From NCBI GenBank assembly GCA_965285935.1, contig OZ260663.1:73842001-73906000 (forward strand): DNA of 64,000 bases, read 5' to 3'. A program made the position numbers and the translations under genes. The notes under the pieces were generated by a model that was given only the letters and a program-made list of their open reading frames with translations, had not been told where the DNA came from and made no database searches. The DNA comes from Ophelia neglecta. Taxonomy: Eukaryota. Of this stretch, positions 25,301 to 28,300 are shown one piece after another (positions within the stretch are counted from its first letter, which is position 1; each line of letters opens with the position of its first letter).

Positions 25301-28300
25301 ATGCATATGCCCAATGCGCAAACTAAAAAGTATTGAAATGGTTTGTTTATCTCAGGACCCTGCCGTATATGCGAGTGACCAACACGAGCCATATGTAAAT
25401 GGTGATGCCGAAAATGTGTTTATCACGTGGCCAGAAGGAATGACTAACCCGGATCAAGGTGTATTTGCCAATCGCTACGTCCATGGCTACGTAAGTGTCG
25501 AAAATGGACTACATAATTTAGCTCAATTTAGCCACAATAGACAATATTGGTTTAAACATTTTTTGTTTAACTGCTTGACCTGAGTAGCATGCCATTGTAC
25601 GTTGGCTATTTCAACGCTCACTCCTTTCCAGAAAGTAGTTTGGTAAACAGGCACATTTCACCTATTATATTTACCTCGCATCATTTCAAATTTAAAAAGG
25701 TTTTATATTGTATTGAAAAAATGATTTTAATTGTTCTAATACAGTCTCGAACTTTTACAGGCGTGGCCAAAAGGTCCCGTGGTATATCCAGATTTTCATA
25801 ATAATGCTGCTAAGGCATGGTGGAAAACGTTGATTAAATCTCACCACAACACAATAGACTTCGATGGATTGTATTTGGTAACTGTCTAAATGTGTCTTCA
25901 AAAATTATACAGTAATGAAAATATATCGTCCGTAGTTTTATTCTATATGATTTTAGTTTTGATCACTTTTATTCATTTCCAGTATACTAATGAACCATCA
26001 AGCTATAGCTCTCCAAAGTGGGATGGTCACAAATTAAACAACTGGTCCCCAATCTGCCCAACCAATAATTTGGACGACCCCCCATACAAACCAGGTTTGA
26101 CAATATGGATTCCATTTTGTTATTTAAATCAAAAAAGTACATCATGTTGTATCTAGCTAGGAACACAAAACAACTCTAGCGTCAATTAATATTATGCATG
26201 TTTGATTGGTTGTAGCAACATTGTTCGGGGCTCGTTTGTCGGACCAAACAATCTGCATGACAGGACAACAGAGTTCCGGATTCGCGAACTATTCCCACTA
26301 CGACGTACACAATATCTACGGTTTGTTACAGGCCAGGCCTTCCCTAGAGTAAGACATGTACTTTTAACTATATATATATATATATAAGCTATTGTTCAGT
26401 CTGTTTTAGATAAAAATTGTTCGTGCCTCTCATGAATTAAATTGAGCAAGGTCAGCAATCTCAACGAGCCAACCTAAACAAAAGTGGCAAAATCGTCTAG
26501 ACAGTAAATGTATAACGGGTTTTAAGTTTAAAATTGGCAGTTTAAGAAAAAAAAGATACAAGTCACTGAAGAATCGCATTTCCAAGTATCAAAATATAAA
26601 ATGAGTTTACATCATCATGTCCTAAACAAATCATTGTGTATCCACAGAATTACTCAAAAATACTATGTTTAACTGCTGAAAATAAAATTCCACAAATATT
26701 TAGATTTTTTTATAATTCAAAAAATATAATATATGCGAATAACAAGACGTCATTTTATCATTCACCTTAATATGTGTCATATGGTGAAAATGAAACCGGA
26801 TGACTATGACAACAACCGAAATTTTATCTCCACTATGACAACGTCAGTAAGTTGATTCTCAGTGCATGTTAGCATTTTTGAACCTCATGGTTTGGTCTTT
26901 TATCAGAGCTGTAGGTGAGGCGAATGGAGAGCGAGGCCTGGTCATCTCCCGCTCGACATTCCCGTCTAGCGGCACGATGGTTGGTCACTCTCTCGGCGAC
27001 AACGAGGCCGACTGGGAATCTCTACGATACTCAATCATCGGCATTCTCGAGTTCAACATCTTTGCAATACCATACGTAAGGGGAAGTACCAACTGCATGT
27101 ATTTGCGAGTTTGGAAACTTTGTTTTCTTTTTTTATCTAGATATCTTAATGCATGTACACATTTAGTTTTCATGTGAGATACATTTGATGCTACCGAACA
27201 CACAATATAAGCGACAAGTGATTATTGTCTATAAATATTTCCATCATGAGATTATCATGCATTTAGTAGGATTTGTGAATGTTTTGACATTGTGGTGTGC
27301 TAAGTAAATAATATCCTGTACGCACATATACGAGTAAAAAGAATTGAAGTAATTTTTGACTGTTCTAGGTCGGAGCTGACATATGTGGCTATGAAGGAAG
27401 TGTTGGTCCTGAACTGTGTATCCGTTGGTTGCAGTTGGGAGCTTTTTACCCCCTCTCGCGTAGTAACAGTGCCCTGGGATCTCAGGTAGGCTGCTCAGGC
27501 AGACGACACTCAGGCCATGGCTTTACTCGCCTCTGGCTTCAGCTGCTTGATACTACAGTTGAATAATGGAACATAAGAAGGCATATCATTTTGTGTTTAT
27601 TCTTTATCAAACTGTGCACAGTAATATTTTTTCATTGCAGTTTTATTTACAGTATAGGACCTTATGATGGATGTATATTGGCTTGTGGCTGTTGATTCCC
27701 AATGATTTCGATCAGATTTAATGGAATATTATTGAATAATGATTTTGCCCTATCCACCGGGTATCCACTCCCATAAAAGAGCATTATTTTCTCGTGTTCT
27801 CGAGTAACTTTAAGACGAAGGAATATTGATATGATTAAACAATGATTAAGCAGCCATTATCGAGAACAAGTTCAGAGAAACAGAGAATACATTTAATTAA
27901 ATGATCGATACGGAGAAAGAAAGAGAATTAGTAAACATTTTCTTGTATTATTTTCAAAATTCTTATTCAAGGATTAACTCTTGGTGTGTAGAAACAGGAG
28001 TAGAAACCCGACGTATTAATCTGAATTGGTAATCCAGAATAATCCATTAAATAAGTCGAAATTCACAGAAGCTATCAGCCACAAGACCACATACCTAATG
28101 AAAGTCCCCAGTTTCATGACAAAAAAACGTGTGTAACTCACACTCTAAAATACCTGTCGTTTATATGACTAATCCTATTGGTAAGGGCGAGGTGAAAAGG
28201 GAATTGGGACAGTACGGAGAGGGAGGGTAAAGCATTCGAAGTGTGCTTGTTAATCACCGGGAAACCTGTTCAAATTATACGTGAACAAGTTCATAACAAT

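Follow-up and report, generated by a model that had tools for sequence, protein, structure and literature searches.

A two-module GH31 gene of Ophelia neglecta with tyrosine at the nucleophile position and a rebuilt pocket in its second module

A two-module GH31 gene of the SI/MGAM type in Ophelia neglecta (gene A) pairs a canonical first module (A1) with a second (A2) that carries tyrosine in the slot of the nucleophile aspartate and has lost most of the residues lining subsites -1/+1, while most of its other conserved columns are kept. The reading we lean towards is that A2 would be a folded, non-catalytic sugar-binding partner beside an active A1, likely without any alpha-glucoside cleavage of its own. 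The window considered throughout is the whole stretch of DNA that was analysed, 64,000 nucleotides of contig OZ260663.1, and it also holds a tandem paralog (gene B, modules B1 and B2) in which the altered pocket recurs.

The exon chain of gene A was assembled manually from the DNA and translated, not taken from an RNA-based model, and its splicing is therefore read at the DNA level. It comprises 44 exons and 2066 aa with no internal stop; AG is found at all 43 acceptors, and the donors are 42 GT and one GC (after 22035). Homology places the product in the SI/MGAM-type GH31 enzymes, with tandem trefoil, N-terminal sandwich, (beta/alpha)8 barrel and C-terminal domains and 39-45% identity over ~900 aa between its modules and named MGAM/SI-like modules. 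Pfam models PF00088, PF01055 and PF21365 matched 8 of the 12 module-2 exons scanned singly; PF00088 also matched exon 2, and exon 1 had no match. A hydrophobic stretch at about aa 65-107, a putative membrane anchor, precedes a Thr/Ser-rich stalk encoded by exon 2. SI/MGAM and their relatives of two to five modules in Lingula, Lineus, Owenia and molluscs share this anchor, Ser/Thr stalk and series of trefoil plus GH31 modules. The features of gene A are as follows.

10121..31955, + strand: gene A; hydrophobic anchor, Ser/Thr stalk, then twice a trefoil plus GH31 module (choice of N-terminal exon uncertain)
15257..15259, + strand: module 1 nucleophile Asp (GAC), canonical DGLWV/DMNE, from the exon chain
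17103..17105, + strand: module 1 acid/base Asp (GAC), canonical HWLGDN, from the exon chain
21129..31955, + strand: module 2, exons 23-44; trefoil, N-terminal, barrel and C-terminal domains all intact
22036..22375, + strand: GC-AG intron of module 2; the equivalent gene B intron has a GT donor
25761..25877, + strand: exon 32, ending in FDGLYL with GT next; the W441 equivalent is Tyr (25872-25874)
25878..25982, + strand: phase-0 GT-AG intron of 105 nt, interrupting the module 2 nucleophile motif in the sequence
25983..26094, + strand: exon 33, opening TAT ACT AAT GAA CCA (YTNEP)
25983..25985, + strand: Tyr (TAT), first codon of exon 33, in the D443-equivalent nucleophile slot; the M444 equivalent is Thr and the F450 equivalent Tyr

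In both genes A and B, one hydrophobic segment is encoded by exon 1 and another by the first part of exon 2 (10121-10394 and 11553-11700; 40810-41116 and 42043-42150), and an in-frame Met belonging to exon 2 lies upstream. These genes may have either two alternative N-termini or a single hydrophobic stretch of 35-40 aa. A run of N at 28861-29014, between exons 38 and 39, lies far from the nucleophile motif. Elsewhere in the window, an ORF at 1683-2153 on the + strand has a weak EGF-like match (PF00008, E 4e-4, just under the cut-off) and is probably an exon of a neighbouring gene, and a 283-aa ORF with an Arg/Ser-repeat tail and no Pfam match lies between genes A and B (34428-35279, - strand).

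The initial annotation held that module 2 had lost its nucleophile, reading FDGLYL/YTNEP across a phase-0 intron placed as in module 1, and the DNA bears this out: the equivalent intron of module 1 is also phase 0 (15130/15257, DGLWV/DMNEP). In all six frames of the window DMNE occurs only twice, at 15257 and 46816, each time in a first module. None of 10 frame-keeping donor/acceptor pairs around the junction yields Asp at the module 2 slot, and a search of the organism's own genome with the nucleophile exon of A2 matched A2 and B2 only. Rescue of the Asp by alternative splicing or by another exon, which the annotation had named as what would refute its claim, is thereby rejected at the DNA level. 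Nor is YLYT a chance variant or a single base error, since it is several base changes away from WxDM and the neighbouring replacements are common to the paralog.

Residues are numbered here as in human NtMGAM, which we take to be the porcine numbering minus 53. All 15 porcine offsets checked match our alignment in the mouse and aardvark N-terminal modules, and the D443 named in PMC12441222 agrees with the conversion. For porcine NtMGAM, PMC12805851 describes 15 residues that make up subsites -1/+1 and the nucleophile. A1 is canonical at 15/15 and has what an active GH31 alpha-glucosidase has, the nucleophile in WxDMNE and the acid/base residue in WLGDN. A2 keeps five, namely D327, I328, W406, R526 and the acid/base D542, and replaces the other ten (D203E, Y299S, I364R, W441Y, D443Y, M444T, F450Y, W539S, F575Y and H600N); of the residues expected in an active enzyme it thus retains the acid/base Asp, and lacks the nucleophile Asp and the subsite -1/+1 set. 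The positions outside the nucleophile exons are these.

22913..22915, + strand: Glu instead of the subsite +1 Asp (D203 in human NtMGAM), within the AREE motif (22907 ff.); B2 likewise
23764..23766, + strand: Ser at the Y299 equivalent, as in B2
25077..25079, + strand: D327 equivalent (sugar hydroxyl contact) kept; also kept in B2
25191..25193, + strand: Arg at the I364 equivalent in the pocket floor, as in B2; Arg in 0/447 database modules
26950..27000, + strand: HSLGDN region; R526 equivalent unchanged (26950), Ser at the W539 equivalent (26989), acid/base Asp GAC retained (26998-27000)
27465..27467, + strand: H600 equivalent replaced by Asn in SRSNS (27456 ff.); same in B2

HSLGDN, SRSNS and AREE are thus all present, as the initial annotation had noted, and its description of the module as whole also stands, with a frame open through all four domains. 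We compared 159 columns that are at least 90% conserved in 79 canonical modules from other species (13 pocket, 146 other). A2 keeps 5/13 of the pocket columns and 127/146 of the others (Fisher p=1.9e-4), and B2 5/13 and 134/146 (p=1.3e-5); as controls, A1 keeps 13/13 and 141/146, and the second module of a further paralog (C2, below) 12/13 and 143/145. In porcine MGAM, changing the nucleophile Asp to Asn brought rates below what could be measured (PMC12805851), which makes classical retaining hydrolysis by A2 very unlikely. That A2 is not a classical glucosidase can accordingly be predicted from its residues with high confidence.

Gene B repeats the architecture with a different pair of altered modules.

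40810..63150, + strand: gene B, tandem paralog; open frame of 2086 aa, its final two exons just past the window end
47772..47774, + strand: His instead of the acid/base Asp in gene B module 1 (HWLGHN); the nucleophile of this module is still Asp, at 46816
59378..59380, + strand: nucleophile slot of gene B module 2, occupied by Glu (GAA), DGLLI/ETNEP, from the exon chain

A2 and B2 keep the same five subsite residues and share eight of the ten replacements, B2 differing in Leu at 441 and Glu at the nucleophile. One of the eight, F575Y, also occurs in the canonical second modules of genes C and D and is not diagnostic of this pocket. B1 has further changes (D366N, D571N, W441L and F575Y, window 45775-48085), and with its acid/base His on one side and the pocket replacements and Glu of B2 on the other, neither module of gene B is canonical. 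The Glu and acid/base Asp of B2 form a pair that is still potentially catalytic. The Asp and His of B1 have parallels elsewhere: the aardvark protein XP_042638461.1 has DGLLLDMNEP and HWLGHN motifs identical to those of B1, a crinoid module has His at the acid/base position, and module 1 of hamster MGAM2 has D366N, D571N and F575Y as in B1, but with D542N. Together these parallels make a candidate convergent pattern; an Asp-His pair has been proposed for the inverting GH156 sialidases (PMC6811678). Two other observations concern gene B: degenerate repeats resembling the acceptor and start of its exon 6 lie upstream of the true exon (44410-44815), and the intron between its modules holds a LINE-like 747-aa ORF with a reverse transcriptase domain (51985-54228, + strand; PF00078, E 2.7e-34).

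Recent wholesale gene conversion is ruled out as the source of the shared pocket. Counting equal-length exons only, with 7 of the 44 exons omitted or empty, genes A and B differ at 135/255 fourfold sites in module 2 and 130/237 in module 1, and exons 29, 32, 33, 35 and 36 differ at 10/12, 4/8, 7/9, 10/24 and 9/15. Divergence is lower in exon 30 (3/11), exon 26 (5/23) and exon 4 (6/21). Equivalent exons at 22759-23143 and 57210-57630, and at 13411-13585 and 43715-43889, are 87-94% identical in DNA. Gene conversion is possible for the tracts at exons 4 and 26, and given the low fourfold divergence of exon 26 the shared D203E may reflect it.

The acid/base exon has 16 matches in the genome, and the remaining GH31 copies read DMNE wherever the nucleophile exon fell within the stretches examined. 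Two of them are two-module paralogs with both modules canonical, so that their four modules are natural positive controls.

C5:73.91-73.94 Mb: gene C, two-module GH31 paralog, just downstream, both modules canonical
C5:70.53-70.56 Mb: gene D, two-module GH31 paralog, ~3.3 Mb away, both modules canonical

Between A and B, module 2 has dN 0.226, dS 2.23 and dN/dS 0.101 (NG86; bootstrap 0.05-0.15, 187/200 replicates usable), a ratio that the initial annotation had proposed to determine and that indicates purifying selection, and module 1 has dN/dS 0.107 (NG86; bootstrap 0.07-0.14); LWL85 gives 0.17 and 0.16 for modules 2 and 1. These values are rough, as dS is near saturation (NG86 1.3-2.2) and YN00 and NG86 are saturated for the C-terminal domains, and each ratio averages two branches. 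In the barrel, dN of module 2 is twice that of module 1 (0.24 and 0.12), which points to some relaxation. A C-terminal module could be lost by simple truncation, yet module 2 is whole in both genes, which we count in favour of retention. Taken from these sequence comparisons, it is nearly certain that selection would have kept A2.

An ML tree of 38 modules over 853 columns (LG+F+G4, fast search) places A2+B2 as sister to canonical C2 (SH-aLRT 97) and A1+B1 beside C1 (99.7), with stems of 0.70 for A2+B2 and 0.35 for A1+B1 and tips of 0.23 (A2), 0.20 (B2), 0.11 (A1) and 0.23 (B1). FastTree on 93 modules sets A2+B2 on a long stem among spiralian last modules and does not resolve C2 as the sister. 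The codons TAT and GAA are each one base change from an Asp codon and two from one another; the order of events proposed below rests on the tree and on this codon distance.

Gene A has its best relatives among SI/MGAM-like proteins from Lingula, Lineus, Owenia and molluscs (50% identity for A1, to Lineus; 44% for A2, to Lingula), by which the animal is most likely a spiralian. Unlike A2, the corresponding last modules in Lingula, Lineus and Owenia and in the paralogs C and D have both Asp. We surveyed 447 GH31 modules from 174 database proteins, 141 of them multi-module, a set biased to top matches, with three near-duplicate pairs and possible gene-model errors. A catalytic Asp is substituted in 19 modules (4 more with an alignment gap there were set aside), and 15 of the 141 multi-module proteins mix canonical and substituted modules, among them MGAM2-like proteins of hamster and mole and proteins of Toxocara, Antedon, Panulirus, aardvark, deer and other eukaryotes. 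Where the nucleophile was replaced, the residue was Glu in 5 modules, Thr in 3, Asn in 3, Ser in 2, Val in 1 and Gly in 1, and never Tyr. Exon queries for an A2 ortholog in other species gave 11 candidates, leading to 2 canonical proteins, and 8 candidates, leading to none, both at no more than 2000 aa, shorter than the gene A product. HSLGDN is absent from the best 150 of 1383 matches, taken as 50% representatives, a clustering level that can mask an ortholog, and an A2-like motif from the best 120 of 918 matches to a scallop module. As evidence of absence these sequence searches are weak. Among the papers listed by a literature search that covered few subscription journals, none dealt with invertebrate tandem GH31 pseudo-modules.

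Published precedent for a fused active and Asp-less architecture does exist, and the architecture recurs; the contrast that the initial annotation had drawn with vertebrate SI and MGAM, both halves of which it gave as active, was overstated. Placental MGAM2 has lost catalytic Asp residues, the human protein carrying D529E and D1526N and being predicted inactive (PMC6451114), and PMC12441222 lists MGAM2 as being without an active-site residue. As in genes A and B, MGAM2 has tandem GH31 modules that have lost catalytic Asp, with an Asp-to-Glu nucleophile as in B2, and the hamster and mole MGAM2-like proteins combine one non-canonical module with one that has both Asp. Gene A differs in that its Asp-less module is C-terminal, has Tyr in the slot, retains the acid/base Asp and carries Ser and Arg in its pocket floor. 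Orthology of A2 and B2 to MGAM/MGAM2 is ruled out, as they fall among spiralian last modules, away from Cricetulus MGAM2, and on this evidence the two losses are independent in origin and convergent. Proteins of Toxocara canis (VDM38291.1), Antedon mediterranea (XP_071949869.1), Panulirus ornatus (XP_071531841.1) and aardvark (XP_042638461.1) also join a canonical module to an Asp-lacking one, and the Toxocara module shares W539S and D203E with A2. The replacing residues in these four are not those of A2 (Val in the slot; at the acid/base position, His or Tyr), and mixed proteins put into the tree are not A2 orthologs; some may be gene-model errors. In Ascaris, nucleophile motifs of GH31 proteins are described as mostly conserved (PMC3789772), and PMC8246590 reports that starlings and their allies have an SI protein without sucrase activity, the residues not being named there. 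What is new here is the Tyr at the nucleophile, the rebuilt pocket common to A2 and B2, and four different catalytic states at one locus.

We propose that a C-like gene with two active sites was duplicated in tandem, and that in module 2 of the copy a burst of change would have emptied the aromatic floor of subsite -1 (Y299S, W539S, M444T, W441Y/L) and added an Arg (I364R), retaining the polar sugar contacts D327, R526 and D542. A second duplication would then have given A and B, the new pocket staying static as drift took the nucleophile codon to Tyr in A and to Glu in B. Module 1 is predicted to hydrolyse alpha-glucosides at the cell surface. With polar contacts kept, the aromatic floor gone and an Arg added, the predicted ligand of module 2 would be something other than plain maltose, perhaps a bulkier or anionic glycan, and the module would not be a simple starch anchor. 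The suggestion that the old active site serves as a starch anchor is disfavoured, the replaced residues being the aromatic floor and wall of subsites -1/+1. The binding role is argued from which residues were kept, with a pocket geometry that comes from alignment; retention of D327, R526 and D542 may be structural, and R526 is also kept in other non-canonical modules aligned. We give ligand binding as the selected role of module 2 about an even chance. The description of gene A as an active enzyme fused to a conserved pseudo-glycosidase holds for its active-looking first module and its intact, nucleophile-less second one, and less well for the conservation, which amounts to two paralogs of one genome.

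The most serious rival, clearly the less probable one but worth keeping in view, is that A2 is dead, binds nothing useful and is retained because it helps module 1 to fold or traffic, or serves it as a spacer. Scaffold columns kept and pocket columns lost are what it would lead one to expect, as is a nucleophile codon that is not the same in A2 and B2. It also has precedent: sucrase, at the C-terminus of SI, is reported to be an intramolecular chaperone (Jacob et al. 2002, cited in PMC3136475), and the lactase-phlorizin hydrolase profragment has such a role too (PMC6412902). In that gut surface enzyme, homologous glycosidase-like domains (GH1-like domains I-II) are likewise joined to active ones, though the profragment belongs to another family, is N-terminal and is cleaved off. 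It fails, however, to predict seven identical pocket replacements in A2 and B2, among them a buried Arg found in none of the 447 modules, when more than half of the fourfold sites differ, and the porcine MGAM units were each active when expressed separately (PMC12805851).

Unlikely, by our estimate, is that module 2 is a re-tooled enzyme for a non-glucose, perhaps acidic, sugar, with Glu and Asp in B2 and, in A2, either Tyr (sialidase-like, activated by a nearby Glu) or water. The module retains the acid/base Asp, the equivalents of R526 and D327 and the NEP Glu, the room made by W539S and Y299S could take a longer nucleophile, the pocket floor has a new Arg, and retaining sialidases and GH143 use Tyr-Glu nucleophile pairs (PMC6811678). 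Against this, Tyr and Glu differ at exactly this position when the rest of the pocket is shared by A and B, as expected of an unconstrained site; Tyr is seen in the slot in 0/447 modules of relatives; the Tyr nucleophiles that are known belong to beta-propeller enzymes with an Arg triad (PMC6811678); and an Asp intermediate is found in all the GH31 hydrolases and lyases described in PMC12441222. A2 as a member of the Tyr-nucleophile families (sialidases, GH143) is ruled out, a beta-propeller with Arg triad and Tyr-Glu pair standing against a GH31 barrel with only a loose Tyr/Glu/Arg likeness in sequence, and so is A2 as a GH31 alpha-glucan lyase, in which the Asp nucleophile doubles as the base (PMC12441222) and for which the A2 slot has no Asp. 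A bolder version, slightly more doubtful again, is that the GH31 barrel has been rebuilt for a new, probably acidic sugar and that the paralogs sample catalytic pairs (Tyr and Asp in A2, Glu and Asp in B2, Asp and His in B1); were it true, A2 would be the first tyrosine-nucleophile enzyme on the GH31 fold, and the Asp and His pair would recur independently in crinoid and aardvark.

An allosteric role for A2 towards module 1, also raised in the initial annotation, could draw on the fusion to an active module and on the pocket-like set of polar residues, and we think it very improbable, because the porcine MGAM units are independent and full-length proteins with a single nucleophile mutated resemble the remaining unit, whose properties are left unchanged (PMC12805851). 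Decay of the module or of the whole gene, or a motif produced by an assembly or gene-model artefact, would fit an exon chain set by hand from DNA and a barrel evolving faster than that of module 1, and is just as hard to credit given open frames of 2066 and 2086 codons, exon lengths and splice sites that are conserved, dN/dS of about 0.1 and a second gene with the same pocket.

For the family, the fusion of canonical and non-canonical GH31 modules, recurring in mammals, nematodes, a crinoid, a lobster and other eukaryotes (15/141), means that automatic 'maltase-glucoamylase-like' labels overcount active sites. For Ophelia neglecta, one locus provides a natural series of four modules, A1 canonical, A2 with Tyr/Asp, B1 with Asp/His and B2 with Glu/Asp, together with canonical C1 and C2 as controls, and lets one ask what role Asp-less GH31 modules have, a question shared with mammalian MGAM2, for which inactivity is predicted (PMC6451114). 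If module 2 is a lectin, as the preferred sugar-binding reading would have it, the GH31 fold would have a glycan-binding specificity new to it; should the module turn over substrate with its Tyr, the mechanism would be new to the GH31 family.
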